64,000 nt of DNA from a virus (IMGVR_UViG_3300042516_004811:32001-96000); one strand, 5' to 3'. Shown: positions 5,869 to 21,800, counted from the first letter of the stretch. Translations and numbers: made by a program. Notes: generated by a model not told the origin, from the letters alone.

Positions 5869-6196
5869 TGTTTGCTCCTTTGTAAGCGGTTGGTAGGGAC
5901 AGACACACCATACCATGCATGGTTCAGACTTAGTAACTCTTGACAGCCCGACTTATCTACCTACATAGAAGCCTTGCCAGCATTGGCTCTCCGACTTATC
6001 TACCTACATCAGCGCACACCTCTTATGTGGTGCGTTGCAGGTGGCATGTTGGCGCACGGATGATTCTCCGACTTTTCTAGCCGTCCCCCCATGCCTGCGC
6101 CCACCAGCCTGCGCTGGAGCCCCGCACCGCTCGGGCTTACAACGGGGCTCTTGTGGCCGGCGAGAGATTTATTGACTTTTTGACTTATCTACCTAG

Positions 6197-6685
6197 TCAG
6201 TCGCGTTCGTCTTTACTGACGCTCCACAGCCCGCGTTTCACCTTAACGAAAATCGGACTTTCTGAAACGTACTTCAGTGTTGTCTGGTACGAGAACCCAG
6301 ACTGCTCGACCAGTTGCTCGGTTGTGAACTGTTCCCCTCGATGGCCTTGAGCCCACTTGTCAAAGTTTTCCCATTTATTTGCGCGCTTCTGTGGAGCTTC
6401 TTCCTTCTCACGCTTTGAGCTGTACTTGAGGCTGGAGTAACCGAGGTTGTCCAGCACATACTGTGCTGACTCCTCTGATACCGAGTAACTGCGTAATGCA
6501 GAGATAGGCGAGCCACTGCCACCATCTCGCTGCCAAATCTGAACAACGTACATCCCTCGCAAAATCTCGTTTATGCGAGTCACTTCTTCCTTTGGAACTG
6601 CGAACAAGTTCTTGTATTTCTTCTCGGCCTCACCCCACAGTTGTTCGTGGTGGATGTCAATGACCTCACTTGTTATCTGATTCAT
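6197..6685 (-). CDS. hypothetical protein, possible C-terminal winged helix
   Basis: ORF with GAGGAAGG RBS; FTTEQLVEQSGFSYQTTLKYV...F.KVKRGLW. Confidence 0.6.
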   Translation of the reverse strand: MNQITSEVIDIHHEQLWGEAEKKYKNLFAVPKEEVTRINEILRGMYVVQIWQRDGGSGSPISALRSYSVSEESAQYVLDNLGYSSLKYSSKREKEEAPQKRANKWENFDKWAQGHRGEQFTTEQLVEQSGFSYQTTLKYVSESPIFVKVKRGLWSVSKDERD

Positions 6686-6921
6686 GTTTCCTTCCTCGGA
6701 CTTATCTACGTGTCCACCCAGCATGGTAATGGAAAAATCAACTATTTGACAAATGCTAAGTTCCGCCAGGCAAGTCTTCCCCCACCGTCATTGCCTACCT
6801 TCCCTGGTTTTCCGCCGCAGCCGGCCGCAGGTATGTAAAAAAAACGAAAAATTGAACACGGTTTAAGCCCTAGGGCTCAATCCAGCCGGGGCTCCACACC
6901 GCATTGAGCGAGTTGGGGCAT

Positions 6922-6960
6922 AAAAAAGCGAGAGCCACCATCCCCGTCAGATGGTGGCTC
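6922..6960 (-). terminator. intrinsic terminator
   Basis: GAGCCACCATC/GATGGTGGCTC stem with T-tract on the minus strand, downstream of 7010..7228. Confidence 0.7.
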
Positions 6961-7009
6961 CCTACTAGGTAGATAAGAAGAAAGGAAATAAACACTTATC
7001 TACCAGTCC

Positions 7010-7228
7010 TTAGAGGAAGGTGAACTTGTCACCCGCCTCTGATACGAGTCCAAGGCTACTGCCATTATCCCATTTCACAAACACAGTGCCAATGTCATCT
7101 ATGTGGTCAATGGTTCCCTCGTCACCAGCACGGAGCGTGGTGTATGGGTCGGCAGTGAAATCCAGTCTTATCCTTCGCCCGATGTAGTTGTCACGCATTT
7201 CCTTGATGACGGTCATTATGTGCTTCAC
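7010..7228 (-). CDS. DUF4314-like protein
   Basis: GRRIRL...DPYT.L..GDEGTIDHIDDIGTVFVKWDNGSSLGLV...DKF pattern. Confidence 0.75.
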   Translation of the reverse strand: MKHIMTVIKEMRDNYIGRRIRLDFTADPYTTLRAGDEGTIDHIDDIGTVFVKWDNGSSLGLVSEAGDKFTFL

Positions 7229-7374
7229 TTGTCTGCTCCTTCCAGTTGTTCCTCTTGCAGTACGAGAATCCGCATGTCCAACAACATGTCCACCATTTCA
7301 CTAGTAGAGATAATGTCCCTGCCTGAGCAGGACGCTATTGCGTTGTCCAACATCTTGATGAGTTCGGCGTTCAC
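7225..7374 (-). CDS. small hypothetical protein (49 aa, not in ORF track)
   Basis: GTG immediately after the upstream stop; GTGA overlap with the next gene; MNAELIKMLDNAIASCSGRDII... Confidence 0.55.
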   Translation of the reverse strand: MNAELIKMLDNAIASCSGRDIISTSEMVDMLLDMRILVLQEEQLEGADK

Positions 7375-8061
7375 TTATTTACCTTCCTTTCTTGCTCGGG
7401 CAAGAAGGTCTTGGTACTCGGAAGTACGCAGAGCCATTTCCATGTATTGACAGATAGCGATGAGTGTGTCGGGGATTCGCCCAAACTCGCTGTCCTCTTT
7501 TAGTTCGCAGACCTCTGCCTTTGGTTCGGAGAACTGTGGGATTCCTTGGTCGTCGTACTTGTAGGGAGCAACGCTGTGCCACAACTTGTCTGCACCCCAG
7601 TTGATAGCGGTGATGACATGAGCCTCGCACACATCGGTAAATGGATTCTCCTGAAACTCCTTCTGCAAGTCGCCTCGGTTCATGTTCTTCATGTTCGCAC
7701 GACCTTCTTCGGGGTCGGTGAATGAGCGTGTGTAGCCCTCAACAGCGAGGATGATGAAGTCAAACTTGGCAATGGGCATTGCCTTGACCACATCCTCAAT
7801 GCAGTCCACTACATCCTCTTTGTGAATCAGAGGAATCATTGCAAGGTGGTAGGGCTTGCTCAGACCAACTTCCTGCTGGAACTCAACACAGGTGTCGTGT
7901 TCGGGGTTGGTTTCATTGCTCTCAACAGCGATGAGCATAATCGCAGGATTATCGGACATTGGCTCCGACTTGCACATCTCTATCTTGGCAAACTGTGAGC
8001 GAATAATCACATCCTCTACGAGAATCTGACCGTCCCTCTCAATGGCTTCTTTGGTGTTCAC
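7375..8061 (-). CDS. hypothetical protein, apparent paralog of 58147..58788
   Basis: 228-aa ORF with AAAGGA RBS and its own promoter; shared QxAK, EGY, DL...F, V.E, APY motifs. Confidence 0.75.
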   Translation of the reverse strand: MNTKEAIERDGQILVEDVIIRSQFAKIEMCKSEPMSDNPAIMLIAVESNETNPEHDTCVEFQQEVGLSKPYHLAMIPLIHKEDVVDCIEDVVKAMPIAKFDFIILAVEGYTRSFTDPEEGRANMKNMNRGDLQKEFQENPFTDVCEAHVITAINWGADKLWHSVAPYKYDDQGIPQFSEPKAEVCELKEDSEFGRIPDTLIAICQYMEMALRTSEYQDLLARARKEGK

Positions 8062-8167
8062 AGTGTTTCCTTTCTGTGGGTTGGTGGTAATGGAAGCATA
8101 CCATGTATGGTTCAGACTTATCTACTGACTAATGGGGCTATCTCTCCCCAACGGTCAGCAATGTACT

Positions 8168-8374
8168 TCATCCAATAATGGAGTCAGTGGGGATTCCGAG
8201 TGCCTTGCCAAGAGCAACTAGCGTCTCAACGCTTGGCATGAAGTGACCGTTCTCAATGCGATTTACGGTCTTTCTGTCAATGCCAGCCCGAGAAGCAAGT
8301 TCTATCTGTGACCAGCCTGCGTTCTCACGCAGTTCCTTCACTCGCTTACTAATGGTTTCTTGTGTTTTTGTCAT
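8168..8374 (-). CDS. XRE/Cro-family HTH transcriptional regulator
   Basis: VKELRENAGWSQIELASRAGIDRKTVNRIENG...PSVETLVALGKALG. Confidence 0.9.
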   Translation of the reverse strand: MTKTQETISKRVKELRENAGWSQIELASRAGIDRKTVNRIENGHFMPSVETLVALGKALGIPTDSIIG

Positions 8375-8407
8375 GGGGGTTTCTGTTTCTGTGGAGTTAT
8401 CTACTGA

Positions 8408-9121
8408 TTAGACGCTTGGAATGAAGGACTCCACATACCTTCCTTCCTTGCGTTGTCTGTCTGCCTTCCGCTTCCAAACGAGATACTCGTTCATTACGGT
8501 TTCAGCATCTGTGTACATCATGTCTGTGTTGTTGTTGCGCCAGTCGTTATGTGCTTCGTAATACTCATCCCACAGCATGGTTTCGTCTTTTTCTGTTGCT
8601 TCGTCATACAACTTCTGCAAATCTTCTGGCATGCGGTCAGTGTCAAGGCTTCCTTCCTCAACTGTTTCTCCGTTAGCGATTACTTCCCAACCGCAGAACT
8701 GATGACCTTCTTCATCATAAGAAAGCGAGAACACGAGATTCGGAAACTGCTCAGACACAGACTGAATCAACTTCGTTGCAGGTGACCATGCGCTCTCAAA
8801 TCGCACATGAAGTGGATACGAGTTTTCATCGTCTACTTCCACATTGCATGCACCCCACTTTGTTCCCCACTTCTCTATTGCGTCTGCGTATCCGTCAAAG
8901 CCGTCTGACTCCGTGCTTGCGAACACCGAGAATGTGGTGGTCACATCGTTTCCATCTTTGTCCTTGTGTGTGCTGACTTTCTCAATGCTTCCCCTCGGGT
9001 CAAGAGGAACGAGTCTGTTCAGTTCATAGCACTGCTTCGGTTCACGCATTGCGCTGATGAGTTTCCGCAGTTCACGCTTATTGCCAGCGACCAACATGTT
9101 TGTGTAGCACCAGTTAGGCAT
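8408..9121 (-). CDS. DUF1281/YubB-like ferredoxin-fold protein
   Basis: MPNWC..N, WGTKW and F.SAWSP motifs. Confidence 0.75.
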   Translation of the reverse strand: MPNWCYTNMLVAGNKRELRKLISAMREPKQCYELNRLVPLDPRGSIEKVSTHKDKDGNDVTTTFSVFASTESDGFDGYADAIEKWGTKWGACNVEVDDENSYPLHVRFESAWSPATKLIQSVSEQFPNLVFSLSYDEEGHQFCGWEVIANGETVEEGSLDTDRMPEDLQKLYDEATEKDETMLWDEYYEAHNDWRNNNTDMMYTDAETVMNEYLVWKRKADRQRKEGRYVESFIPSV

Positions 9122-9409
9122 GTCCAGTTCCTTTCGGGTTTAGTTCCATGCGATGTACCATACCAGCACAGGGACAAACTTATCTACCTGACTCATCCAC
9201 CACCGTCATTTGGTTTTTGGAGACTTATCTACCTGTCCCCCCGTGCTCCTCGTCTTTCGGTTGGAGAAAGTTCGTAGTTAGATTTATCTAAATGTCCACC
9301 CACACGAGCGACCTTCGGTGTCACGGCGTGAGCCCCGGCGCTGGTCCGTGCATAGCGGGGCTCCAGCTGGAGTTATCAGATTTCAGGGAAAGTTGGTGGA
9401 CTTATCTAC

Positions 9410-9745
9410 TTAGATGGACTCAACAGGAGAAGCGTAGATAAGTTCCGAGTAGGCAATGCGCCAGCCCTCGTCACTACCTTGCCAAGCGATACGGATAATG
9501 TCACGCACTCCACTTAGGTATCGGAACACTGCATCATCGTCAATGCCAAAATCGTCTAGTTCATCACCCACAGGTGGAGCAGAGAAAGAGACATAGGCGT
9601 AAATGTGGTGGCTAGCCTTTTCTTCCCATTTCAGTGCAACATCAGCACCAACCAGTATGCGCCCCTGCGTTGCCGTGTGATACCAGTGTGTGAACATCAC
9701 TGCGATAGTCCACGCACAACGACGCAAAAAGTTATCTACCCACAT
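9410..9745 (-). CDS. hypothetical protein
   Basis: ORF from MWVDNF with AAGGGG RBS. Confidence 0.5.
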   Translation of the reverse strand: MWVDNFLRRCAWTIAVMFTHWYHTATQGRILVGADVALKWEEKASHHIYAYVSFSAPPVGDELDDFGIDDDAVFRYLSGVRDIIRIAWQGSDEGWRIAYSELIYASPVESI

Positions 9746-9962
9746 TGAGTCCCCCTTCCACGGTACGGAGCGTTGCGTCTGCAACGGCGAGAGCAAGTGT
9801 ACGGGCATCAACGCCATGCTCATCAGAAATCCATGGAAATAGATGACCGTCTCGTATGTCATCCCACATGTTGCACATTGCTTCTACTGGCGTGACACCG
9901 AGAGTGTTGTATTCAGTCCATAGGAAGTCTGTGAGTTCGCCCACGCTCATCGGCTCACTCAT
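9732..9962 (-). CDS. hypothetical protein
   Basis: 76-aa ORF with ATGA overlap to upstream gene. Confidence 0.55.
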   Translation of the reverse strand: MSEPMSVGELTDFLWTEYNTLGVTPVEAMCNMWDDIRDGHLFPWISDEHGVDARTLALAVADATLRTVEGGLNVGR

Positions 9963-10171
9963 TGCGCTACTTCTTCTACCTTGATAGTTGAGATACTGGT
10001 GAGGTTCTTGCGGAAGTCAAATGAGAACTTCATTGCCCAGTAATCCAGCATGACGCTCTGCGCTTCTTCGCAAGCCTCTTTGAGTTTCTTGGGAGAGATA
10101 GAGTCGTCAAAAATGATGTCCTCTGAAATCTCTGTACCACGGATTACGCCCGTAACTCTGTACTTTGCCAC
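9959..10171 (-). CDS. hypothetical protein
   Basis: 70-aa ORF; RBS and GTG start are formed by AAGGAAGGTAGATAAGTG. Confidence 0.6.
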   Translation of the reverse strand: MAKYRVTGVIRGTEISEDIIFDDSISPKKLKEACEEAQSVMLDYWAMKFSFDFRKNLTSISTIKVEEVAQ

Positions 10172-10208
10172 TTATCTACCTTCCTTCCGAATCCGTGCCA
10201 GTCTACTT

Positions 10209-10790: not shown

Positions 10791-10849
10791 GTTTTCCTCT
10801 CGGTAGGTGTTGCTAGTAACTGTACCACTAACGGTTCAGACTTATCTAC

Positions 10850-11236
10850 CTATTCCTCGTCCTCGTCGTCCGACCAAAGTTCGTTTTCGTCCTCTGAATC
10901 GTCCTCAAACTCATCCTCGTCATCGCTGATGAACTGAACGGTCACGGATGAAACTCGTCCGTCCTCTGCGTATTCCACGAATACGGGATACAGGCCGTCT
11001 CCCCAGCCTGATGAGACACACACGCCAGCACCAGTGCCACCATGCTTGTAGAGCAACTGCCCACCACCCTGCTCACTGAGGGAAGCACCGCAGGCTCCGT
11101 TATACGAGTACGGGTGGGTCTCTCCCTCTGACGGCGCAAACTCCTCATCGCTGAGGAAGTCGCTGACATAGCACGGGTCGGTCAGGAGAATCTGTCCTGA
11201 ATCCACTCCGCAGTATCCGATGAGTTTCCGTTCCAT
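10850..11236 (-). CDS. DUF4241-like protein
   Basis: GVDSGQILLTDPCY and SGWGDGLYPV motifs. Confidence 0.65.
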   Translation of the reverse strand: MERKLIGYCGVDSGQILLTDPCYVSDFLSDEEFAPSEGETHPYSYNGACGASLSEQGGGQLLYKHGGTGAGVCVSSGWGDGLYPVFVEYAEDGRVSSVTVQFISDDEDEFEDDSEDENELWSDDEDEE

Positions 11237-11585
11237 TTCTTATCTACCTTTCTTGGTGGGTGATGTGAACGACTGTACCACACACGGTTCAGACTTACAA
11301 AGCGAGTCATCCACCACCGTCATTGTGTTAGGGGGGTGTGTCAGAGTTATTTACCAGCCCCACCAAAAAAGCGAGAAATCTGAAACAGGCATGACTTATC
11401 TACTTGTCCCCCCACGCGCACGGGTTCACCGCCACCCGCAGGGAGCCCCGGCGGTCCACTGCATGTAGCGGGGCTCCAGCCGAACAGGTGGGTATGTGGC
11501 TCGGACTTATCTACCTACCTAGGCAGGGGGGCAGAGTGAGGGTAGATAAGTATGGGGGGCGCACTTATCTACCCTCTACCGCCAG

Positions 11586-11906
11586 TCAGTCGTCCAACCC
11601 TCTCAACTTGCCGCCTCGCACCTCGTAGTCGTGGAGAGCGTCAGCAATGTTCCTACGGTATTCGCCATTCCCGAAAGACCAGCCCTCGGGACGGTCGTAG
11701 GCGGTGAACACAGCGAACGGGTGGAGTGGGTTGTGGGGCAGGAGACACAGCACCACCCACACGGCGTAGGTGTCTATGTCAGAGGGGCGCAACAGCCAGC
11801 ATGCGAGGACGGTGTAGGCGTAGTCACTTGATGTAGGCGTGACCACTTCGCCCACAGAGAGCAGGCGCATGGGATAGGTGTCGGTCGGGGACTTATCTAC
11901 TGACAT
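11586..11906 (-). CDS. hypothetical protein
   Basis: 106-aa ORF directly downstream of the DUF3846-like gene. Confidence 0.55.
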   Translation of the reverse strand: MSVDKSPTDTYPMRLLSVGEVVTPTSSDYAYTVLACWLLRPSDIDTYAVWVVLCLLPHNPLHPFAVFTAYDRPEGWSFGNGEYRRNIADALHDYEVRGGKLRGLDD

Positions 11907-11909
11907 GGC

Positions 11910-12362
11910 TTACTTCCCTTCCAGCCAAGCGTCAAACTCGTCATCGGTCAGAGATACGACCTTCGGACTGGGGTCATCCATGATTCGGGCGACTTCCGCC
12001 TCTACGGTGGTGCGCACTCGCTCATCGTTCAGAATGAGTCCAGCGATGAGATGAAAACGCTCGCCCATGAACTCGGCAGGCACGTCGTAATCGTTTCCGT
12101 CGTACTCGCCACGCTCATTCAGATAGCCAACGACCACACAGTCACCCACGAGAGGACGACCGAACAGAACGCTCGCCACGAGATTCGGAGCAAGACCGAT
12201 GAGCAGTCCCTCGTCGTGGACGTAGCCAGCGAGATTCTCGCCATTGGTCACGCAGTCAATCCAACCGCCAACCAGTGAGTTGATGGTCTGATAGGCGTTC
12301 TCCTCGGGGAGAGTGACGGGTGCGATTCCCCCGTCTGCCTTGATTAGTAGTGCTTGTGTCAT
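11910..12362 (-). CDS. DUF3846-like protein
   Basis: LVGGWID.V...YVHDEG...N..AS....LVGD.VVVG pattern; AAAGGA RBS. Confidence 0.75.
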   Translation of the reverse strand: MTQALLIKADGGIAPVTLPEENAYQTINSLVGGWIDCVTNGENLAGYVHDEGLLIGLAPNLVASVLFGRPLVGDCVVVGYLNERGEYDGNDYDVPAEFMGERFHLIAGLILNDERVRTTVEAEVARIMDDPSPKVVSLTDDEFDAWLEGK

Positions 12363-12721
12363 GTGGATTCCTTTCTCCGTTGGTGACACCTGAACTGTAC
12401 CACCACAGGTTCAGACTTACAAACCGAACTTATCTACTTGCTCCCCCATCCCAGCCTCGCCCTCTCGCGCGGTGGGAGCCCCGGGGTTCTGCCAACTGTG
12501 GCGGGGCTCCAGCTCGGCACGGCTCGCTGGCTGTGAGTGGGGTGGCAGGTAAGAAAGTCGCAGATTTCTGTGGTGGTTGCTTCTTATCTACATTCTCTCT
12601 ACCGCCCTCGCTCACGCTCGGTTGCTCTCGGAGTAATAGGTAGATAAGTCGGGACAAAGAGAAGCCCCACCACTCTCCCCTAAGTAGGTAGATAAGTGGT
12701 GGGGTTCCCTTTGGGGGTCTG

Positions 12722-13135
12722 TCAGGCAGTCGCCTTCTTGGTGGACTTGACTGCCTTCGGCTTGTCTGCGCCCTTCGTGGGTCGCACCAGCACTCGCACA
12801 GAGTGAGAGATTTCCACGCAGGTACGAATGACCTTTGCGGAGATTTCGCCTCGCTCAACTGAGGAGTCCCACGCCTTCGTGTCCACCGTGGGCTTCGTGA
12901 CCTTGCGGAACACGGCAGGAGAGACAGCCTCACGCAGTTTCTCCAAGTTCCACGAACGGCGTTCGGCGGGGGACAGTTTGACCGTCACCTCGTCAAGAGC
13001 CACTTCGTCAAGCCCGTGGCTTGCGAGCGTGTCCAGCAGGATTTGGCGAGCCTCGTCGTGGGCTTCCTCTGCCCTCTCTTTGAGGGTGAGAGCGTCAAGG
13101 TAGCCCTTGACTGCGTTGGTTACTTGCTTGTCCAT
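12722..13135 (-). CDS. hypothetical protein
   Basis: ORF from MDKQV with GAAAGGGA RBS and conserved upstream promoter. Confidence 0.7.
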   Translation of the reverse strand: MDKQVTNAVKGYLDALTLKERAEEAHDEARQILLDTLASHGLDEVALDEVTVKLSPAERRSWNLEKLREAVSPAVFRKVTKPTVDTKAWDSSVERGEISAKVIRTCVEISHSVRVLVRPTKGADKPKAVKSTKKATA

Positions 13136-13630
13136 TTCAGTATCCCTTTCGTGTTGAGTGGTGGACACCACCACTCTACACCACATAGTTCAGACTTCAC
13201 AACTTCCCTTGACACTTATCTACCTAGTCAGGGACAGCCCACACGCCAGCGCACTTATCTACCTTCATTCGCCTCGCACATTTGCCAACTAAGATGACTT
13301 ATCTATGCGCCCCCCCATTCCAGCCAGCCCTCTCCGCACGGCTGGAGCCCCGTTGTTTCGGCAGTTTGGTGCGGGGCTCCTGGCTCGGCTTGCCCGCAAC
13401 CTCAGTACGGGGGGCAGGTAGAAAAGTGGAGATTTCATCACTCAACCAACTACGGCTATCTCGTCTAGCCATTCGCCTCGCAGAGATAGAAGCAGACCTC
13501 GGGTTCGTGGAAGCGCAGAACGCAGAGAACAGAGCAGTCCTCCGCAGAGCCACATTCCACTCGGTTTCAGAGTTATCTACCTCCCCTGAACCTCCCACTA
13601 TCTAGGTAGATAAGTGTCCCCAGACAAGCG

Positions 13631-13667
13631 AAAGGGGGAGTGAGCAACCAACTGCCCACTCCCCCTT
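13631..13667 (-). terminator. probable intrinsic terminator
   Basis: AAGGGGGAGTG/CACTCCCCCTT stem downstream of 13701..14123. Confidence 0.55.
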
Positions 13668-13700
13668 GCTTGGGGCGTTTCCCTTATAGAGAAAGGGAGG

Positions 13701-14123
13701 CTAGAGGTACTCCGCCACGCTCTTGAGTGTGGTTGCCGACACATACTCTTGGTCGGTCATTTCCAGCACTCGGATTGCTTGTTCCAAAGCCTCTCGGTCA
13801 GCCTTCCAGTTCCACTCCTTGTAGAGTTCGGGGGACTCGGGCTCGCTTCCGATAGTGGACTTCGGGAACTCAAAGGTCGCCTGAATGGTCACGACCTTTT
13901 CCTTGTTGTTGGGTCGCCAGCGAGAAGTGGTTGCCTCCGTGACCTTGCCCTTGCCAGCCTTGACAAGTTTCAGCAGGTTGGTGTTGTATGCCTCCACAGC
14001 CTTGTCATACTCGGCTTCCAACTTGTCGTTGTTGGCGAACCGCTTGGCTCGCTCGTCAAGTGCCTTCTTGAGTGCCTCCAAGAGAACACTCACCTTGACT
14101 TTCACCTGAAGTGATTTGGACAT
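13701..14123 (-). CDS. hypothetical protein
   Basis: 140-aa ORF with AAAGGA RBS and conserved promoter. Confidence 0.75.
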   Translation of the reverse strand: MSKSLQVKVKVSVLLEALKKALDERAKRFANNDKLEAEYDKAVEAYNTNLLKLVKAGKGKVTEATTSRWRPNNKEKVVTIQATFEFPKSTIGSEPESPELYKEWNWKADREALEQAIRVLEMTDQEYVSATTLKSVAEYL

Positions 14124-14468
14124 TTCCTTTTCTCCTTACCAACGGCATTTCTCGGTTGTGAACCGCTGGCACAGGCACAGTACCACATACGGGACAGACT
14201 TCATAACTCAACTTATCTACCTGCCTCCCCATTCCCAGCGCACAGCCATTCGCACGGCAGAGCCCCGTTGCTTCTGCGATTACGGCGGGGCTCCGGCACT
14301 CGGCGGTTCTAACTGCGAGCGTGGGTGGGCAAGTAAGAAAGTCGGGAAATAGAAACGCATTTAGTTGGCTCGGAGAGTTATCTACCTTTCTCATTTAGGT
14401 AGATAAGTCGGTAGATAAGTGAAAGCCCCTACCCACTAGGGGCAGGGGCTTCACTCGGGGGGTCTCGG

Positions 14469-14909
14469 TTAGAAGGCTCGCACCAGCAGGTTCTGAACTG
14501 CGTCAGCGAGTGAACCCGTTGCCTGTCCTTCATCCACGACTGGTTCAGTCGGCTCGTCTTGGAAGCGGAGAACGCTCACCACGCTCTCACGGCTGGCGAA
14601 CACGGAGAGACGGACACGCCTCTTGGCAGGGTGTTCGCTCGGTGCGCCTTCGGCTTCGCCCTCGCTGTTGAGTGGCGCCGCCCAGCCTGTCGTGACAAGT
14701 GCTATGTAGTCGGACACCTGCGCCACCTTTACGGCAGTATCGCTGTCCAGCAGGTCGTACACATCCCGTTCGGCGGTAGCGAGCGTCAGGCTCACCTCTC
14801 CGTTCAGGTCAATGTTCACGGAGTAGAGGTGTGCGCTACCCATTTCGTAGCCCACCTCTGCGTCAATGATTTCTTCCGCTCTGGAAGCACTTTCGGTGAA
14901 TGTTGCCAT
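14469..14909 (-). CDS. hypothetical protein
   Basis: ORF from MATFTE with GAAAGGGA RBS; TGWAAP and PSEHPAKRRVRL motifs. Confidence 0.7.
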   Translation of the reverse strand: MATFTESASRAEEIIDAEVGYEMGSAHLYSVNIDLNGEVSLTLATAERDVYDLLDSDTAVKVAQVSDYIALVTTGWAAPLNSEGEAEGAPSEHPAKRRVRLSVFASRESVVSVLRFQDEPTEPVVDEGQATGSLADAVQNLLVRAF

Positions 14910-15308
14910 TTGGTTGTCCCTTTCTCGGTTGGTTGGTTGGACACCACGACAGTACCACATACGGTTCAGACTTAGCAAGGGTGGGACTTATCTACCTAGT
15001 CAGCGAGTGCGCTGGTGAGGTTCTTCCACCACCGTGAATGTCTTGGGGAGAGGTTGTCACGCCCTGCCTCACCGCACGGCTTGACGAACTCGGCAACTTG
15101 ATGCGACTTATCTACTTGCCCACCCCTTCCTGCGCCTCACCGCCCCAGCACGGCGGAGCCCCGGCGGTGATGAGCGTCAGCGGGGCTCCTGCCCACCATC
15201 GGCGCACGGAGAGAAATGTCATCGGCTCGGCATTGGGTCGGACTTATCTACCCCCTCACAGAAAGGGGGAGAGAGAGGGTAGATAAGTGCCGAACGCCTA
15301 CGCTACCG

Positions 15309-15599
15309 CTAGGGGTTGCGTGGCGAGTCTGTGGGGAGATGAATGGTCTGCCAAGTGTCTATGCCTGCCCCGTACATCGCTACCAGCGTGTCAATGACGG
15401 CGAGAACATCGCCAGTACAATGACGGCGAGCAATACCGTCTAGCGTGTCGCCACTCACTACCTCAACGCTACGCACGGCGCAGGAAAAGGTGGGAGGCTC
15501 TACCGCCTTGCGTACCGCCCACACTCCTGCCCACAGCAGGGCGAACACTATGGGCGTGAACACTACGAAACGGCGCACGGTGTACTTATCTACCCTCAC
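15309..15599 (-). CDS. membrane-anchored LysM domain protein
   Basis: N-terminal TM helix followed by VVSGDTLDGIARRHC...IDTWQTIHLP. Confidence 0.7.
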   Translation of the reverse strand: MRVDKYTVRRFVVFTPIVFALLWAGVWAVRKAVEPPTFSCAVRSVEVVSGDTLDGIARRHCTGDVLAVIDTLVAMYGAGIDTWQTIHLPTDSPRNP

Positions 15600-16063
15600 G
15601 CCGTTGCCTCCTGAATAGCGATGCTCTCCCACGGGTGAGCCTTCTCAAAAATGGCAACATCGTTACCGTTCTCGTCTTTCGTAATGCGCCGAACTTCCAA
15701 CCTGTCATCGTGAATGATGTACAGCCACTCGCACCACGCAAGTTCCTTGTCCTCATTGGTGAACCACGCCGAAGGGTCGTAAAGGCTCGTGTCCGTGTGT
15801 GCGTAGCCGTAGCCTGTCACGCAAGCGTGTGCTTCGTAAAGGCTCGGCTCTCCTGCCTCGCTCGGCTTGGCAAGTGGGTCAATGATAGACCACGAAGCGT
15901 GTTCATAGCAGAGCGTGTGTGCCACATTCACTCTGCCGTCTCGTGCTACAAGTTCGCCAAGAACTCCCACAATGCGTTGTGGGTAGTTGTCCCAATGGAC
16001 ATACCTGCCACGCCACCCGTTTCCGCCGTGTGTTGCGTGTGCCACTATTCCTCGTGTTGCCAT
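15596..16063 (-). CDS. conserved-looking phage hypothetical protein
   Basis: MATRG.V...GRYVHWDNYP...G and EWLYI motifs; GAAAGGG RBS. Confidence 0.7.
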   Translation of the reverse strand: MATRGIVAHATHGGNGWRGRYVHWDNYPQRIVGVLGELVARDGRVNVAHTLCYEHASWSIIDPLAKPSEAGEPSLYEAHACVTGYGYAHTDTSLYDPSAWFTNEDKELAWCEWLYIIHDDRLEVRRITKDENGNDVAIFEKAHPWESIAIQEATA

Positions 16064-16382
16064 TGCTTTCCCTTTCTCGTCAGTTGCTATGGACACCACC
16101 ACAGTACCACGCAAGGTTCAGACTTACAAACCCAAACTTATCTACCTGTCACCCCACGCACGAGCCTCTGCCCTCGCACGGCGAGAGCCCCGATGTTTAG
16201 CCGTCTGTGGCGGGGCTCCAGCTCCTCGCTCACACTCACGCCGGCACGGGTGGACGCGTAGATAAGTCGGCAAAGTTCAGTCAAGTTCACGACGCTTGCA
16301 GGTTGGTTGTGTTCATACAGACGCATAGACCTATCTACCCTGCCGTTACTAGACAAGGTAGATAAGTCGTGCGGTTAGTTAG

Positions 16383-16781
16383 TTATTCGTCGTCGGACTC
16401 AAACACGGGGACAACAAGGCTTGCACTGCCAGTTGGAGCATCGTGGTGCGAGAGAGAGAACTCAACTCGGTCAGAGAACACTCGGTAGCGGAGAATCCAT
16501 TCTGAATCCACGGTGATTGCACGAACGAACTCGGAGACGGTGCGAGCCTGAAACACTCCACCAACTTCACGATTCCAAAGACGGATTCCCGAAACTCGGA
16601 AAGTGTCAGATTGTGAAAGAAAGTTGTTCAGACACTCGCCAAAGAAGTACAACTCATCTTCGTAGCAAGTACCGAAACACACGGGAGAATCCGTGAAGGT
16701 ATCGGTTTCTTGGTCGTGCACGGTGCAGGTGCAAGTGTTGGTCAGTTCGCCATAGGCGACTGGCATCTCGGTGGTGGTCAT
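16383..16781 (-). CDS. hypothetical protein
   Basis: ORF from MTTTEMP with GAAAGGGA RBS and conserved promoter. Confidence 0.7.
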   Translation of the reverse strand: MTTTEMPVAYGELTNTCTCTVHDQETDTFTDSPVCFGTCYEDELYFFGECLNNFLSQSDTFRVSGIRLWNREVGGVFQARTVSEFVRAITVDSEWILRYRVFSDRVEFSLSHHDAPTGSASLVVPVFESDDE

Positions 16782-16847
16782 TTCATTCCCTTTCTCGGTG
16801 GTGGACAAGCACAGCGTACCACGCAAGGGTCAGACTTATCTACCTTG

Positions 16848-17102
16848 TTAGTAGGGGTCGTAGTTGTCCCATTCATCTCGCCTACGCTCCAAGTAGCGTT
16901 CTTGGCAGTTGTCATACTCACCACAGGCGTAGAAGTCATCTTGTGACTTGTCAGGATTCTTCGTCAGCCATTCAGCTAAGTCTTCTTCCAGTCCGTCTTC
17001 GTCGTATTCTTCCAGCCAGCGTTCTTCTTGTGATGACAAGCACCCACGCTCACTACCTCTCAACAACCAAGTGTCGTAATCAAGTTGGAACTTCGGTCGC
17101 AC
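16848..17102 (-). CDS. hypothetical acidic protein
   Basis: 84-aa ORF, GGAGAGGG RBS, conserved promoter. Confidence 0.6.
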   Translation of the reverse strand: MRPKFQLDYDTWLLRGSERGCLSSQEERWLEEYDEDGLEEDLAEWLTKNPDKSQDDFYACGEYDNCQERYLERRRDEWDNYDPY

Positions 17103-17355
17103 AATAATCCCTCTCCGTTAGTAGCACAACACAACGCTAACACAGAGTGTTCAGACTTATCTACTCGCCCACCCACACACAGCACTCGCACCTCGCGTAG
17201 CGGGAGCCCCGGCGTGGCTCGCTCTGTGGCGGGGCTCCTGCCCAAGGCGGTGGCAGGTGTGTGAACGGGGAGACAGGTAAATAAGTCGTCATCCCACCAC
17301 AAACTTTCTCGGATTTATTTTGACACTTACCCACGCAACGAACCTTCTAATAGAT

Positions 17356-17526
17356 GTGAAACGCTACTACTTCTCACATTGTGGTTCTCTCCACCCCATT
17401 AGCCGTGACTTGGTGTTTGATGATGACGGTCAGCCCAAGTCGTACTATCCGCTAGTTGCCTGTCCCGTATGCCGAAAGATTTGCTGGCTCACACACGCAT
17501 ACGAGGCTGGCAATGATGATGAGTAG
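17356..17526 (+). CDS. small putative zinc-binding protein
   Basis: HCG...CPVC; TTGACA upstream at 17320; TAG stop lies inside a GTAGATAAGT box. Confidence 0.45.
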   Translation: MKRYYFSHCGSLHPISRDLVFDDDGQPKSYYPLVACPVCRKICWLTHAYEAGNDDE

Positions 17527-17591
17527 ATAAGTACGGGCAGGGGCTTACCTACCTACATAGAACACGCCACATAGGTAGATAAGTCAGGCGA

Positions 17592-17789
17592 TTACTCGCA
17601 CTCGCACTCGCCCCATTCCTCGCCACAGTCGTCACAGAGTTCGTCAGGCTCACGCTCGTAAGGCTCGGAGTCGTAGTCAGGCTCGTCAGCGTAGTAGTCG
17701 GCGTACCTATCCTCTTGCGCCTTGATAATGGACGCTTCCTCGTTCCAATGCGAGTAGTCCCTAATGCTGGAATGACGCTCGTTAGCCAT
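17592..17789 (-). CDS. small acidic Cys-containing protein
   Basis: 65 aa ending CDDC...CEC; RBS and spacer formed by the repeat box. Confidence 0.6.
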   Translation of the reverse strand: MANERHSSIRDYSHWNEEASIIKAQEDRYADYYADEPDYDSEPYEREPDELCDDCGEEWGECECE

Positions 17790-17806
17790 TGTTATCTACC
17801 TACCTT

Positions 17807-18283
17807 TCAGACCTTCTTGGCGCACACAGGACCAATGCCACGCTGGACGCTCTTGCTATCGGTTAGTTCCGCACCGCACACACAGCAAATGCCGTACAGC
17901 GCACCGACTTCTTCCGCTTCTTGGATAGTCAGTCGGTCATTGGCAGACAGACGCTTGATAGCACCGCCTTCATAAACCAAACGCTCGCTCTTGGTAGTTG
18001 CTTCTGGAACGAAACGCAATGCGTAGAGTGCCGTGCCTGCTTGGTTCCAACGCACACGGTAGATGTTTGCGCCGTTGCGGTACATACCAACCTCGGTAAC
18101 AGGGTTGATGTCACCTCGTGCGTTCTCACGCTCACGCTGAATGTTGCGAAGCACGGCTTCTATCTGCTTGGTGGTCAGACTGCCCTTAGTGCGCCATTGG
18201 GTGAACAGGGACGCAAGGAATGAGTTGCGCTCGTGGTTCTCCTCTAAGTAGTCAATGGCTCGGTCAAAGTCATTAGTGGACAT
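17807..18283 (-). CDS. DUF6011-like zinc-finger protein
   Basis: C-terminal GICCVCGAELTD..SVQRGIGPVCAKK. Confidence 0.75.
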   Translation of the reverse strand: MSTNDFDRAIDYLEENHERNSFLASLFTQWRTKGSLTTKQIEAVLRNIQRERENARGDINPVTEVGMYRNGANIYRVRWNQAGTALYALRFVPEATTKSERLVYEGGAIKRLSANDRLTIQEAEEVGALYGICCVCGAELTDSKSVQRGIGPVCAKKV

Positions 18284-18623
18284 AGGTTCCCTTTCTCTTG
18301 GTGGACACTCACAGAGTATCACTAGTGGTACAGACTTATCTACCTAGTCACAGGCTCGGACTTATCTACCTAGTCAGTCACAGTCACCCCCTCGCCCCCG
18401 TCAAATCTCCGACTTTTCTACGCGTCCCCCCACACCCAGCACCTCCCTGCCCCGCAGGGCGGAGCCCCGCACAGTTCGGGCACGGGCCGGGGCTCCAGCT
18501 CGCTGGTGCTGGCTCGGCGTGGATGGGGTGGCAGGTAAATAAGTTTGAGAAAGTTCCAAGCAGATGTCCGATACGGGGACTTAGCGAACCTCAAAGTAAA
18601 TGAGAGAGAGGAACAGACAAGAG

Positions 18624-18863
18624 ATGGACGATTACGACAGATACGACCAAGAGTTGGCTACTTGTGCCGTGCTGTATGACGAGATAAACGAGAACTACAT
18701 CTGTGGATACTGCCTAGACGACTTCTCGTTCTCGCAACTCCACGCCACCTACGGTGGGAACATCCTGCCGATACCCACATTCCGTTCACGCAAGACACGC
18801 AAGCACCTGTGTCACGAGATGTGCGGTATGTGTGGTCTACCAGCGTCACGAGCGTTCTCGTAG
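18624..18863 (+). CDS. hypothetical Cys-rich protein
   Basis: CGYC...CGMCG; GAGG RBS. Confidence 0.5.
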   Translation: MDDYDRYDQELATCAVLYDEINENYICGYCLDDFSFSQLHATYGGNILPIPTFRSRKTRKHLCHEMCGMCGLPASRAFS

Positions 18864-18926
18864 GGGGACAGGGCTTATCTACCCTCCCAGCCCGACGCTA
18901 AGAGGGTAGATAAGTGTCCAGCCTTG

Positions 18927-19442
18927 TCAGCAGATAGAGAAACCGCCAGAGTTCTCCAAGAACTCCACGAACGCACGGACATTCTCCGTGCTGAACGGAT
19001 AGCCAGACTCCCACGACTCTCGTGTGCCTATCCCGTCACAAGCGTTACACCAGCCGTGTGTGCGACCAGTCAAAATCTGAACTTCTACGGACAACTCTTT
19101 GTCGTGTTGCCCCATCTCACGACCAATGTCATCAGTACGGATACCCGTGCCGTCACAGAGGTCGCACTTCTCACGGGGAAGGCTCGCCCTCCACTCGTTG
19201 TATTGACGCTCGTTCTCGGCGGTAGCACCCGTCTCCAACTCGTGGCGCAACTGCTTGGCGAGTTCCAGCGCACCAGACTCATCCAGCCCGTCACCGTCGT
19301 TGTAGTGACCAGACACGCCCTCGCAGAGTTCGGGAGCAACCGTCACGCAGTAGTCCCACAGGGGTCGCCACCACCACACATTGTTGCGGAAGTATTCGCC
19401 CGTCTCGTTGGTCGGCTTCTTGCCGTACACATCCATTCCCAT
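18927..19442 (-). CDS. hypothetical protein with DnaJ-type CxxCxGxG zinc finger
   Basis: YFRNNVWWWRPLW; CDLCDGTG and CNACDGIG. Confidence 0.75.
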   Translation of the reverse strand: MGMDVYGKKPTNETGEYFRNNVWWWRPLWDYCVTVAPELCEGVSGHYNDGDGLDESGALELAKQLRHELETGATAENERQYNEWRASLPREKCDLCDGTGIRTDDIGREMGQHDKELSVEVQILTGRTHGWCNACDGIGTRESWESGYPFSTENVRAFVEFLENSGGFSIC

Positions 19443-19506
19443 TACTTTGCCCCTTTCACTTGGCTCGGTCTTGTGAGCGTACCACACACGGCACAGACTT
19501 ATCTAC

Positions 19507-19677
19507 CTATGCTGATACGGACTCGCTGATGTTGTAGTCACACTCATCCCAAGTCAGGGAGAGGTTGGCTGTCTTGGCAAGGCTGTCAATGTAGGCATTG
19601 ACTATGCGCTCGGCGTGTTCCTCGCTGTCAGCCTCAAACTCATTCACTTCCAGAATGATGTTGGCAGAGAACTTCAT
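19507..19677 (-). CDS. small hypothetical protein (56 aa, not in ORF track)
   Basis: AAGGAG RBS, conserved promoter at 19711-19741; MKFSANIILEVNEFEADSEEHAERIV... Confidence 0.65.
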   Translation of the reverse strand: MKFSANIILEVNEFEADSEEHAERIVNAYIDSLAKTANLSLTWDECDYNISESVSA

Positions 19678-19877
19678 TGGTCTAACTCCTTTGTAGTTGG
19701 TGTGTACGAAACATTACCAGTAAAGGTACAGACTTATCTACTCGCCCCCCGCACCACACGCCTAGCCACCGCAAGGCGGAGCCCCGCTGGTTGCCCGCTG
19801 TAGCCGGGGCTCTTGGCCCCTCGCCCGACTTATCTACCTGTCCTTGTGGGTAGATAAGTGGGCGGGTGCGCCTTGGG

Positions 19878-20162
19878 TCAGGCGGTGATTTCCTGCCAGC
19901 CGACCGACTCGCAACGGAACCGCTTGCCGTCGACCTCAACCTCGTCACCGACCGACAGGGCCGTGTGGGTGCGGTCCTCGGGCAGGACTGGCTCCAGCAG
20001 GTTCCAGAACTCACCTGTGTAGGTGTTGGTGTCGTGGAACACGAACTCGCAAACCGTGCGTTCGTTCACATCTGCGATGCTGGTCCACTTCACGGTGGTC
20101 TGGGTCGGCGTTCCGAAGGCCTTCCAAATCACCGTGATGGTGCGTGTGTCTGTGTCGAGCAT
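19878..20162 (-). CDS. YodL-like hypothetical protein
   Basis: HTALSVGDEVEVDGKRFRCESVGW motif; GAAAGGGGAG RBS. Confidence 0.6.
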   Translation of the reverse strand: MLDTDTRTITVIWKAFGTPTQTTVKWTSIADVNERTVCEFVFHDTNTYTGEFWNLLEPVLPEDRTHTALSVGDEVEVDGKRFRCESVGWQEITA

Positions 20163-20415
20163 TGCTCCCCTTTCTGGCGAGCCCTTCTCGCCTTCCCCTG
20201 AACTGTACCACGCACGGTTCAGACTTATTTACCTGCCTACCCGTTCCCTGGGTTCCCCTGGGGCTGGAGCCCCGTTGGTTCGTGCGATTGGTGCGGGGCT
20301 CCGCCCCCGGCGGGCGTGGGGTGGCGCTGGCTAGCTTGCTGGCACGGGATGGCAAGTAGATAAGTTTGAACCTTGAGTGGTACATTGATGTCAAGCCAAG
20401 AGAAAGGGAAACGAA

Positions 20416-20679
20416 ATGGCAACACTGCAAGAAGCTCCGTACAAGCCAGAGGGTTGTACTTGCCCCCCCGATGTAAATATTTGGGGTAAAGATATTTGTG
20501 CGGTTTGTCGTGATTATCGTGATGCTTGTGACGAAGCAGAAGCTCTCATCACTTATTGCAAGGTTTGTGACGGCGCTCACGATGGTGGCGAATTTGGCGA
20601 ACTTTGCCCAGCGAATGGTCGCCATTGGTTTGAGCCTTCAGACCCACGAGACCTTTACGATGCGGAGGATAGGTTCTGA
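20416..20679 (+). CDS. hypothetical Cys-rich protein
   Basis: conserved promoter plus AGAAAGGGA RBS; CTC...CAVC...CKVC. Confidence 0.65.
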   Translation: MATLQEAPYKPEGCTCPPDVNIWGKDICAVCRDYRDACDEAEALITYCKVCDGAHDGGEFGELCPANGRHWFEPSDPRDLYDAEDRF

Positions 20680-20858
20680 TGCGAGCAACACACAACACCC
20701 CAATCCCACCCGAAGAGCCCGAGTTTCCGATTCCAGACGATTGCGCTTGCGAGGACGGCGTGAACTGGTGCACCGCTTGCCAGCGAGTGCTAGCGGAGCT
20801 GCTGGCACGGCAAGACGAGGAGGAGCGCTCATTTCGCGAACACGACCACGAGGCTTAG
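20679..20858 (+). CDS. small hypothetical protein (59 aa, not in ORF track)
   Basis: TGATG coupling with upstream gene; CAC...CTAC. Confidence 0.55.
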   Translation: MRATHNTPIPPEEPEFPIPDDCACEDGVNWCTACQRVLAELLARQDEEERSFREHDHEA

Positions 20859-21032
20859 CCACGGCAGGTAAATAAGTCCCCCGCTTATCTACCTGTCTGT
20901 CTGTGGCGCGCGCCCGGGGCGGAGCCCCGTTGGCTAGCGCATCCCGCGCGGGGCTCTCCCCCTGGGCCAAGGCTGGCTCGTGCGTGGGGAAGCAAGTAGA
21001 TAAGTCTGTCCCATTGCTGGTAATGTGTTGGC

Positions 21033-21419: not shown

Positions 21420-21475
21420 ATAAGTCTGAACCTGTAGTGGTACAGTGATGACAGGCCAAGAGAAAGGGAAATAAA

Positions 21476-21628: not shown

Positions 21629-21800
21629 AGAGGTAGATAACAATGACCGTGCGGAGGGGGACCCCCACCCCCTCTAATCGGCCCCCGGAGCCCCGCCATG
21701 ATTCGTTTTCGGGGTGGGCATGTAGATAAGTTGACGAAATCCACAGCCGGTCTGTATCCTGAGCCATCCGGGGTGTAACCCGATACCAGAGGAGAAAACC

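Follow-up and report, generated by a model that had tools for sequence, protein, structure and literature searches.

A polar composite repeat of about 130 bp separates small early-gene units in an uncultivated phage and its relatives

A ~130-bp composite repeat, real and tightly spaced, separates the small early-gene units of an uncultivated phage with a 151-kb genome, as well as those of its relatives. We analyzed a window of 64,000 nucleotides from this genome and found that the composite element is polar, with a conserved core flanked at set distances by shorter boxes (Table 1). Judging from the sequence, it is most likely a protein-bound boundary and upstream promoter element, and not a mobile cassette site.

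The core of the repeat, GGAGCCCCG-N17-19-CGGGGCTCC, occurs 13 times in the window with 1-3 mismatches at most, and a scan of the whole 151,107-bp genome found no further such core outside these sites, all of which lie between 6116 and 20957. From 11.4 to 21 kb, the cores follow each other at 488-1317 bp, in agreement with the ~0.5-1.3 kb given by the initial annotation. The box, ACTTATCTAC, has 117 matches genome-wide at ≤1 mismatch, ~100 of them in the 0-32 kb part of the window; at ≤2 mismatches, the window holds 153 against 36 expected. Twelve of the 13 cores have a plus-strand box on their left, with 33-39 nt between box end and core, and eight of the 13 have an inverted box that starts 34-40 nt to the right, whereas random placement (20,000 trials) gave means of 0.34 (maximum 5) and 0.33 (maximum 4), respectively. 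The 43-47 and 44-46 bp reported initially are the same distances, taken from the outer edge of an 8-bp box. A full motif scan thus showed the box-core spacing to be far tighter than chance, and confirmed the recurring element of fixed geometry that had been proposed. The two-fold symmetry attributed to it holds for eight copies but not for the other five. In four of these (9329, 11442, 15155, and 19778), a short box hairpin (ACTTATCTAC-loop-GTAGATAAGT) replaces the inverted box on the gene-distal side, while the 6116 copy carries only a same-sense box there. The range of 6068-21006 first assigned to the element contains the 13 cores, but degenerate or partial copies also occur beyond it, at 21687, 26662, 27168, and 29783. 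Lone half-sites exceed chance as well (nine versus 1.4 expected in the studied phage, G000, with similar figures in four relatives).

Table 1. Elements, partial copies and associated signals, numbered from the first letter of the window.
Feature	Coordinates	Strand	Description
e6116	6071..6192	-	Proximal box variant 6071-6080, core 6116-6151, distal same-sense box 6183-6192; no inverted distal box
Terminator	6930..6962	-	Ordinary intrinsic terminator, 14-bp stem and T run
e9329, type II	9282..9443	-	Proximal box variant 9282-9291, core 9329-9364, distal short box hairpin 9400-9443
e11442, type II	11394..11551	-	Proximal box 11394-11403, core 11442-11477, short box hairpin 11505-11551
Example cassette promoter	12395..12437	-	Downstream of element; box, TTTGTAAGTCTGAACC, N5, TGGTACAGT; then RBS GGAGAAAGGA, ATG near 12352
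e12475, type I, symmetric	12428..12558	-	Proximal box 12428-12437, core 12475-12510, inverted distal box variant 12549-12558
e13344, type I, symmetric	13297..13427	-	Boxes 13297-13306 and 13418-13427, core 13344-13380
e14259, type I, symmetric	14211..14342	-	Proximal box 14211-14220, core 14259-14294, distal box variant 14333-14342
e15155, type II	15106..15288	-	Proximal box 15106-15115, core 15155-15189, short box hairpin 15242-15288, loop has CCCCCTTTC
e16184, type I, symmetric	16136..16267	-	Boxes 16136-16145 and 16258-16267, core 16184-16219
e17203, type I, symmetric	17155..17286	-	Boxes 17155-17164 and 17277-17286, core 17203-17238; example copy of the initial annotation
e18461, type I, symmetric	18412..18544	-	Boxes 18412-18421 and 18535-18544, core 18461-18496
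e19778, type II	19732..19859	-	Proximal box 19732-19741, core 19778-19813, short box hairpin 19828-19859
e20266, symmetric	20223..20365	.	At strand switch; core 20266-20302; left box heads leftward promoter, right box rightward promoter (TGGTACATT)
e20921, symmetric	20883..21005	.	Boxes 20883-20892 and 20996-21005, core 20921-20957
Compact degenerate copy	21687..21731	+	GGAGCCCCG-N14-CGGGGTGGG joined to box
Lone half-site	26662..26740	+	CGGGGCTCC, then 33 nt, box, extended -10 promoter; core left arm missing
Compact copy	27152-27213		Resembles the 21687 copy
Remnant	29729-29791		Distal half only

Most of the transcription units contain 1-3 genes, and 13 of them are preceded by a core and a TTG/TGGTAYnnT promoter. 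In the minus-strand array, the order read in the sense direction is the end of the upstream gene, an optional inverted box, the core, ~38 nt, the box, the promoter, and the next gene; the placement of the element just upstream of a conserved promoter was therefore borne out in the minus-strand sense. This promoter is sigma70-type with an extended -10 (TTGGGAAGTCTGnnCC-N5-TGGTAYnnT), and at e17203 its -35 region is the proximal box itself. The mirrored half has no -10 element inside the one-directional array. At e20266, boxes head promoters both ways, so this unit is truly bidirectional, and the right box of e20921 heads a plus-strand promoter before the gene at 21033. Intergenic positions account for 86 of 98 boxes, and the box strand flips together with the genes at ~21 kb. 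Because box orientation tracks the gene strand even between genes lacking a promoter, it is also compatible with an RNA-level or transcription-coupled signal. Among 72 consensus promoters from five genomes, 29 are preceded by CGGGGCT in the sense orientation, its end being 60-91 nt upstream of the -10, and 19 have no half-site within 400 nt, indicating that the element is dispensable for promoter function.

We compared the studied phage with four IMG/VR relatives of ~150 kb (G002 to G005), each of which carries 10-12 elements at orthologous gene junctions. Near-identity (99.6%) was seen in one relative only, G001, which is a colinear fragment. When 22 symmetric copies from four genomes were aligned, the 7-bp core AGCCCCG/CGGGGCT was the same in all of them and no compensatory change occurred, while the linkers were fixed in length and free in sequence across the four relatives; the 35-40 nt mode recurs in G002 and G003 despite unrelated linker sequences. 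The box is phage-specific, reading GTAGATAAGT in G000 and G002, GTAGGTAAGT in G003 and G005, and ATAGATAAGT in G004. Outer boxes changed in concert on both arms whereas core spacers were alike by orthologous position, which points away from gene conversion and toward co-evolution with a trans factor. The element type was identical in four genomes at four of five junctions compared. In G002 and G003, the position orthologous to the lone CGGGGCTCC half-site at 26662 likewise has a lone site, and the missing partner arm makes a hairpin impossible there. The core also persists, with a C/T variant, in relatives in which the F12 protein is only 36-38% identical.

The core is not an intrinsic (rho-independent) terminator. 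Its loop is 16-20 nt long with no T run on either strand, and the terminator at 6930-6962 indicates that the ordinary type, with a T run, is in use here. An imperfect hairpin in RNA (or single-stranded DNA) was considered more broadly: read-through transcripts of the upstream unit would fold into a ~135-nt stem, with the box pair as outer stem and the 9-bp GC core as inner stem, that stabilizes 3' ends, is cut by an RNase III-type enzyme or aids termination, like REP/BIME or T7 RNase III sites. The eight symmetric copies indeed fold at an MFE of -59 to -70 kcal/mol (z -1.8 to -4.6 versus shuffles). In 22 copies from four genomes, 82.6% of cells are paired as compared to 40-50% with partners slid, and 12 of 21 outer pairs show both-sided changes. 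Inverted box pairs also occur just after stop codons at many spacings (12-50 nt and ~110 nt), canonical terminator-like sites are scarce between the units of the G000 array (one strong and one weaker, the latter with no proper T run), and the core spacer is strand-polar, its 3' half being A-rich and T-poor on the sense strand (134 A versus 36 T in 49 copies).

However, when 5' and 3' arms were swapped between copies within a genome, they folded equally or more stably (G000 native mean -73.2, cross mean -78.3 kcal/mol), so copy-specific compensation is absent. G.U pairs were about as frequent as A.C mismatches (31 versus 35 in the outer stem, 3 versus 6 in the core), thus favoring neither strand. 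The both-sided changes separate genomes and not copies, and in G004 the outer boxes are of different types in all four symmetric copies. Length deviations on one side have no match on the other (47/37, 44/37, 33/53, and 28/38), and the half-site conserved alone in three genomes has nothing to pair with. In the distant relative L131, the core is preceded by intrinsic terminators at a distance of 43-58 nt and is consequently not the terminator there, and the C/T variant produces a C.A mismatch in half of the copies, whichever strand is read. The core is not followed by a T run. Rfam returned only tRNAs over the whole window at the gathering threshold and no match within 11000-21500 at E up to 1, consistent with the initial view that the element belongs to no described family. 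A selected RNA hairpin is thus not supported, and we consider the hairpin explanation unlikely overall, at a minor though appreciable probability.

We also asked which proteins might read these sites. Two HTH proteins are encoded in the region (8168-8374 and 2176-2574); their recognition helices are invariant across phages with different boxes, and both are also present in relatives without the core repeat. Neither of the two behaves as a cognate repressor with a specificity tracking the box. Alternatively, the core hairpin or the box could be a promoter for a phage-encoded RNA polymerase (N4-like hairpin) or a Frpo-type single-stranded DNA promoter. Giant proteins of 2070 and 1516 aa with no detectable family, cassette genes that resemble plasmid leading-region sets, and the mutually complementary divergent promoters at e20266 would suit this explanation. 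On the other hand, searches for a T7-type RNA polymerase and for a sigma domain found neither, every cassette is already served by a good sigma70-type promoter (TTG/extended -10) at the proper distance from its RBS, and the core loop of 16-20 nt comes with a start region that is not conserved. Phage DNA enters double-stranded, unlike DNA in the plasmid leading-region setting of Frpo. The element does resemble Frpo/ssi in forming a long imperfect hairpin ahead of early, probably anti-defense-type genes, with overlapping plasmid-typical families. In Frpo, however, the -35 and -10 are both within the stem (PMC11541004), whereas here the -10 sits 13-30 nt beyond the outer stem in all copies but the bidirectional e20266 and e20921. 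Taken together, we regard a promoter of either kind as very improbable.

The second reading in the initial annotation was an attC-like boundary that shuffles promoter-gene modules. The absence of an integrase, noted at first for the window, holds for the complete 151-kb genome, in which we found no tyrosine or serine recombinase, integrase, resolvase, or Y1 transposase; PF00589 was absent, with all control genomes matched, as was PF01797 (RAYT/Y1 transposase). Lacking an integrase, the phage is probably lytic. In the broader form of this idea, the primary role is evolutionary: element and promoter would be recombination substrates that shuffle promoter-gene cassettes, as in PeSLs, with the symmetry also permitting inversions. 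Related genomes do contain a few such events. The F50 and F51 cassettes lie beside elements at different places and on opposite strands between genomes, the F50 copies being similar from the -10 of their shared promoter onward, and the F21 unit is absent from G004 along with one core. Two unrelated genes have a ~70-nt promoter-leader-RBS unit in common, and the compact copies resemble deletions between G runs. The visible breakpoints fall in the shared promoter, a pattern closer to T4-type PeSL shuffling than to site-specific recombination. These observations lend weak support to an attC-like boundary, but gene order is largely colinear in four genomes and the elements keep orthologous junctions even though the genes are only ~70% identical. 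Moreover, since units have 1-3 genes, nearly every gene adjoins an element, and indels beside elements carry no statistical weight. Homologous recombination also does not require strict conservation of half-sites or spacing. Shuffling as the primary role is accordingly improbable. Even less probable, and the least so of all the explanations considered, is a selfish miniature transposable element (MITE- or REPIN-like) spread through intergenic DNA with the boxes as terminal inverted repeats. Terminal inverted repeats of ~20 bp, a uniform ~130-bp length, and multiple intergenic copies would agree with this. Yet no target-site duplication flanks the boxes, the complete genome lacks a transposase as well as the enzymes listed above, the sites are orthologous in diverged genomes with spacers diverging by descent, and five copies are asymmetric.

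Several known repeats share part of this organization. PeSLs (promoter-early stem-loops) combine a terminator and a promoter in a short motif whose stems, G/C-rich or A/T-rich, are loosely conserved (PMC2839356, PMC4122927). As with T4-type PeSLs, we observed intergenic repeats of composite build amid the small accessory genes of a hyperplastic region, group-specific motifs, shared-promoter cassettes occasionally gained, lost or moved, and, recurring between small ORFs, a stem-loop joined directly to a sigma70-like early promoter. Unlike them, the element extends over ~130 bp and is positionally conserved, with few indels seen in the genomes compared. Its inverted repeat of 7-9 bp is invariant, encloses a 16-20-nt spacer and lacks a T run, and a linker fixed at ~38 bp leads to outer boxes that mirror each other. 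In Cluster A mycobacteriophages, stoperators and operators are asymmetric sites present in dozens of copies (PMC9283540, PMC6550527). Only the box resembles them, as an asymmetric, phage-specific 10-13-bp site found at promoters and in short intergenic gaps, in an orientation following transcription. However, boxes here number ~100 in 30 kb of a probably lytic phage, and also form inverted pairs and the outer arms of a larger symmetric element. REP/BIME/REPIN sequences are likewise extragenic mosaics of inverted palindromic units with set-length linkers after genes, and the units here can form long hairpins at the energies given above. In contrast to those families, the element is phage-borne and tied to a downstream promoter, has no RAYT/Y1 transposase and no sequence or Rfam match, and shows neither strand bias nor copy-specific pairing. 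Finally, attC sites are comparable in that they mark the boundaries of single-gene cassettes with imperfect inverted repeats, 60-140 bp in length, whose outer boxes are conserved and whose center varies, but here the inner repeat is conserved, each cassette has a promoter, the cassettes are largely colinear, and no integron integrase or tyrosine recombinase is present.

With a probability slightly short of even, we place the element among promoter-linked intergenic repeats of phages such as PeSLs, stoperators, and BIMEs, as a DNA-level nucleoprotein boundary and upstream module. The initial annotation had offered a fixed-geometry site for two proteins as its other reading, and at the sequence level this would fit most findings, including the invariant AGCCCCG, the lone half-site in three genomes, the concerted phage-specific boxes, linkers conserved in length and not in sequence, and the lack of any sign of a selected hairpin. 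Other findings point against a nucleoprotein complex. Besides the HTH helices that do not change with the box, the promoters without a half-site, and the box orientation between genes lacking a promoter, the half-site-to-half-site spacing varies over 14-24 bp, a range that a rigid dimer would not easily accommodate, boxes pair in a stem-like manner at variable distances, and the core-to-promoter distance is not fixed in L131. In the nucleoprotein model, the element would punctuate the early or accessory gene array at the DNA level and regulate it from upstream. The invariant half-site (CGGGGCTCC on the sense strand) is set ~36-39 bp upstream of a phage-specific, -35-like box. This box either serves as the -35 region of a sigma70-type promoter with an extended -10 or lies immediately before it, and the promoter is presumably used by the host RNA polymerase. 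A second half-site and a mirrored box at equal distance create the two-fold symmetry of eight copies, and both halves head divergent promoters at the strand switch. One conserved factor may read the AGCCCCG half-sites, while the boxes may be read by another factor that is specific to each phage, alone or with RNA polymerase. Both could then assemble into a fixed-geometry complex between the end of one unit and the next promoter, thereby insulating, activating, or shutting off units. Repetition of the promoter and element sequences would also allow promoter-gene cassettes to be shuffled occasionally by homologous recombination, as a by-product.

The window covers bases 32001-96000 of an IMG/VR virus record. 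This record, 151,107 bp long with direct terminal repeats, had no close relative among GenBank phages when searched by DNA and by polymerase protein. The first 32 kb of the window form an array of small genes. Between approximately 3 and 20.3 kb these lie on the minus strand; from 20.4 kb up to approximately 30 kb, the plus strand carries most of them. The core of the repeated element, the inverted repeat GGAGCCCCG-N17-19-CGGGGCTCC, is present there in 13 copies. They span positions 6116 to 20957, and the rest of the genome has none. The outer box, the 10-mer ACTTATCTAC, was found 117 times in the genome with at most one mismatch, and about 100 of these sites are within the array. The box changes strand with the genes, so that its sense strand reads yAG-GTAGATAAGT-c. 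No further position is conserved over 50 nt on each side, and the literature held only chance matches to the box sequence. A plus-strand box lies to the left of the core in 12 of the 13 copies, with its end 33-39 nt away (0.34 expected at random, at most 5 in 20,000 trials), and in eight an inverted box starts 34-40 nt to the right (expectation 0.33). The box-core geometry reported in the initial annotation is thus real and far beyond chance.

On the sense strand, which is the minus strand for most copies, all 13 copies present the core, a G-rich linker of ~38 nt, rTGGGGGGrCAn and GTAGATAAGTC. In eight of them (type I), the mirrored half, ACTTATyTACCTGCCnCCCC, is found as well, ~38 nt away on the upstream side of the core. 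In four others (type II), its place is taken by a short box hairpin, ACTTATCTAC-loop-GTAGATAAGT; the copy with its core at 6116 has only a same-sense box on that side. The core spacer is polar, with 134 A vs 36 T in its 3' half on the sense strand (49 copies, five genomes). A conserved promoter, tTgGGAAGTCTGnnCC-N5-TGGTACngT (72 instances, five genomes), follows the proximal box on its downstream side; the RBS GAAAGGGG and a start codon come ~35-45 nt after this promoter. The box either is the -35 region itself or precedes a degenerate copy, TTGTAAGTC, by 10-15 nt, and AAGTC, the 3' half of the box, belongs to the promoter consensus. At the copies with their cores at 20266 and 20921, the mirrored box heads a plus-strand promoter. 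The rightward unit of the former has ~70 nt of promoter, leader, RBS and first codons in common with the unit at 21416, this nearly identical stretch preceding two unrelated ORFs (Table). Judging from their sequence, these promoters resemble the sigma70 extended -10 type of the host. A sigma54 reading of TGGTAC-N5-TGGTG was rejected on inspection of the promoter set, the -12 GC being absent or out of register. The short box hairpin between gene families F15 and F14 carries on the sense strand a loop sequence, CCCCCTTTC, complementary to the RBS GAAAGGGGG that the cassettes share; this loop is kept in three genomes.

Scanning IMG/VR for the core pattern identified four contigs of ~145-158 kb that carry it (G002 to G005), as well as near-identical fragments. 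G002, G003 and G004 have 10 to 12 cores each in a homologous array, and G005 has three in its first 12 kb, the part examined. The half-site, i.e., one arm of the core, is unchanged in all four, while the abundant box differs by genome (Table). The outer boxes of the composite also follow the genome (CGGCAGGTAGG in G003; two types, ...TAGAGATAGAAAAGT and ...TCGTGATAAAAAAGT, in G004). A linker length of 35-40 nt recurs, with unrelated linker sequences. According to the gene-family map, cores are located at orthologous junctions (upstream of F8, F1/F18, F18/F11, F14/F15, and F12/F21), and the element type is identical across four genomes at four of the five junctions compared. Core spacers are alike by junction, such as CCCGAaGCCCgaCCA at F1/F18 in G002, G003, and G005, whereas boxes are alike by genome. 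Such a pattern would be expected if the box co-evolved with a trans-acting factor, and not from gene conversion. More distant relatives were found by searching with the F12 protein alignment. Contig L125 has eight cores with GAGTAGATAAC boxes, and L131/L137, L132, L139, and L140 (F12 identity of 36-38%) keep AG(C/T)CCCG-N14-24-CGGG(G/A)CT. A recurring inverted repeat was looked for in L128, L130, L136, and L142 and none was found; therefore, the element is confined to a sub-clade. In L131, the core is followed at two places by palindromes and extra direct CGGGGCT half-sites (Table). Taken together, the data show a genuine element of ancient standing in its clade, with constraint on both half-site sequence and spacing.

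Coordinates and sequences of features in the array and in related contigs
Feature	Genome or contig	Position (strand)	Sequence
Relocated F50/F51 cassettes	L119 vs L117	13447-13929 (-) vs 18059-18556 (+)	
Relocated F50/F51 cassettes	window vs L117	10209-10790 (-) vs 17302-17904 (+)	
Abundant box	G002		GAGTAGATAAGTC
Abundant box	G003 and G005		GGTGTAGGTAAGTC
Abundant box	G004		TAATAGATAAGTC
Second conserved box	window	~9200-9215, ~11300-11315 (minus)	sense GACGGTGGTGGA; + strand TCCACCACCGTC
Second conserved box	L139	~4230-4250	
Second conserved box	L140	~3950-3970	
Second conserved box	L130, L136		
Shared promoter-leader-RBS-start unit	window	20340-20450 vs 21400-21510	
Short box hairpin, F15/F14	window	15242-15288	loop CCCCCTTTC
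Short box hairpin, F15/F14	L117	~11300-11345	loop CCCCCTTTC
Short box hairpin, F15/F14	L119	~11850-11900	loop CCCCCTTTC
Palindromes with extra half-sites	L131	1181-1290 and 6958-7060	ATAACGCG-N2-CGCGTTAT
HTH_3 protein	window	8168-8374	
HA + r4-like HTH protein	window	2176-2574	
Cassette genes	window; genome	6197-26588; 110345-119248	
2070-aa protein	genome, outside window	102423-108635 (minus)	
1516-aa protein	genome	136055-140605	

The symmetric copies fold as ~135-nt hairpins (-59 to -70 kcal/mol, z -1.8 to -4.6), and in an alignment of 22 copies 82.6% of cells were paired, vs 40-50% with slid partners, with changes on both sides at twelve outer pairs. An element acting as RNA or as a single-stranded hairpin is a serious rival to double-stranded protein sites. 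However, these both-sided changes fall between genomes, and arm swaps between copies of one genome give folds that are equally or more stable (native -73.2 vs cross -78.3 kcal/mol in the genome studied here, similar in the others). G.U-type mismatches are as common as A.C-type ones (31 vs 35 in the outer stem, 3 vs 6 in the core), deviations in linker length occur on one side only, and all four symmetric copies of G004 have outer boxes of differing type. Lone half-sites are enriched 4-9 fold, one of them being kept as such upstream of the same promoter in three genomes. Also against a hairpin, the C/T variant of L131 is split evenly between left and right arms (three copies each), which means a C.A mismatch in half of the copies whichever strand is considered, and strong intrinsic terminators are found 43-58 nt upstream of the core in that contig. 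On balance, we consider a hairpin function the less likely of the two. The core was also rejected as a terminator, as it has no T run and real terminators occur nearby. The Rfam search returned no family for the element, in agreement with the initial annotation, which had recognized no described element.

A recombinogenic cassette boundary had also been proposed. No tyrosine recombinase, resolvase or Y1 transposase was found in the complete genome, and no target-site duplication was seen at the elements. Gene order is largely colinear among the genomes compared. The F50 and F51 promoter-gene cassettes occur inverted at another location in another genome, similarity between the F50 copies starting at the -10 of the shared promoter; G004 is without the F21 unit and one core; and some single genes adjoining elements differ between genomes. 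Adjacency of indels to elements was dropped as a test of the cassette idea, as it carries no weight when units of 1-3 genes put nearly every gene beside an element. G001, a 19.7-kb contig 99.6% identical to this genome throughout, simply ends at 15270, so that its apparent divergence there gives no breakpoint information. The few moved or missing units speak for the proposal, but the mostly colinear order and the absence of a recombinase in the complete genome speak against it. These events fit an occasional shuffling by homology between shared promoter and element sequences, probably as a by-product rather than the main function. Comparable homologous shuffling has been described for T4-type PeSLs (PMC2839356, PMC4122927).

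Which proteins might read the element was also investigated. Neither a T7-type RNA polymerase nor a sigma domain was found. The 2070-aa protein had no Pfam, PHROGs, PDB sequence or ESM Atlas match (one Atlas search), and the 1516-aa protein had no PHROGs or PDB-sequence match and only a sub-threshold Pfam match (Gly-zipper_YMGG, 23.7 bits vs a cut-off of 28.9); these null searches weigh neither for nor against a virion RNA polymerase. Two HTH proteins are encoded nearby (Table). Their recognition helices are invariant across phages that differ in box, and both proteins are also present in relatives without the core, making them poor candidates for box readers. They fit better with the second conserved box, GACGGTGGTGGA, which lies directly upstream of some cassette promoters. 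This second box recurs in wider relatives, some of them without the AGCCCCG repeat, and precedes that repeat by ~10 nt in L139 and L140. The first box resembles the operator and stoperator sites of Cluster A mycobacteriophages, which are asymmetric and orientation-tied (PMC9283540).

The cassette genes include DUF4314, DUF1281_C, DUF3846, DUF6011, DUF932, a ParA-like ATPase, and a SNF2 helicase, a set reminiscent of plasmid leading regions. An ArdC-like domain was observed within the head-protease cargo protein. In a single scan, the only bacterial-genome match to the F12 family was L143 (JBMTHB010000261.1, 2.7 kb), binned with a Candidatus Nanopelagicales MAG. It may hint at a freshwater actinobacterial host or be a mis-binned phage contig, and is too weak for naming a host.

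The best-supported reading, which we hold tentatively and at somewhat less than even chances, is a DNA-level nucleoprotein boundary and upstream module built from two mirrored half-modules. The element is a new, more elaborate promoter-linked intergenic repeat of phages, outside every described family. More speculatively, and improbably in our estimate, it would be a two-factor symmetric boundary complex evolved in this clade as a global switch, or else a single-stranded cassette joint. In the former case, every early transcription unit would be bracketed by two putative readers set ~38 bp apart, an invariant one for the half-site and a phage-specific one for the box. A single phage protein could then turn on or off together some 100 sites, comprising promoter -35 regions as well as boxes between genes. 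In the latter, the same architecture would act single-stranded and independently of an integrase. If the boundary complex is true, a large and probably lytic phage would have a global switch of the stoperator kind, along with insulators without described counterpart.

In large uncultivated phages, small early genes form long arrays, and little is known, to our knowledge, about how these are transcribed, insulated and timed. The array studied here has families like those of plasmid leading regions and may include anti-defence functions. The element offers a sharply delimited, conserved cis-architecture that can be tested: the half-site does not vary, the linker is fixed at 38 bp, the box is specific to each phage, and the promoter is of the extended -10 kind. 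At least five genomes of ~150 kb share it. Finding the readers would explain the joint control of about 13 units and about 100 boxes and would provide orthogonal, portable promoter and insulator parts. The promoter-linked intergenic repeats of T4-type phages and mycobacteriophages thus have a counterpart in another lineage, independent of them and more elaborate.
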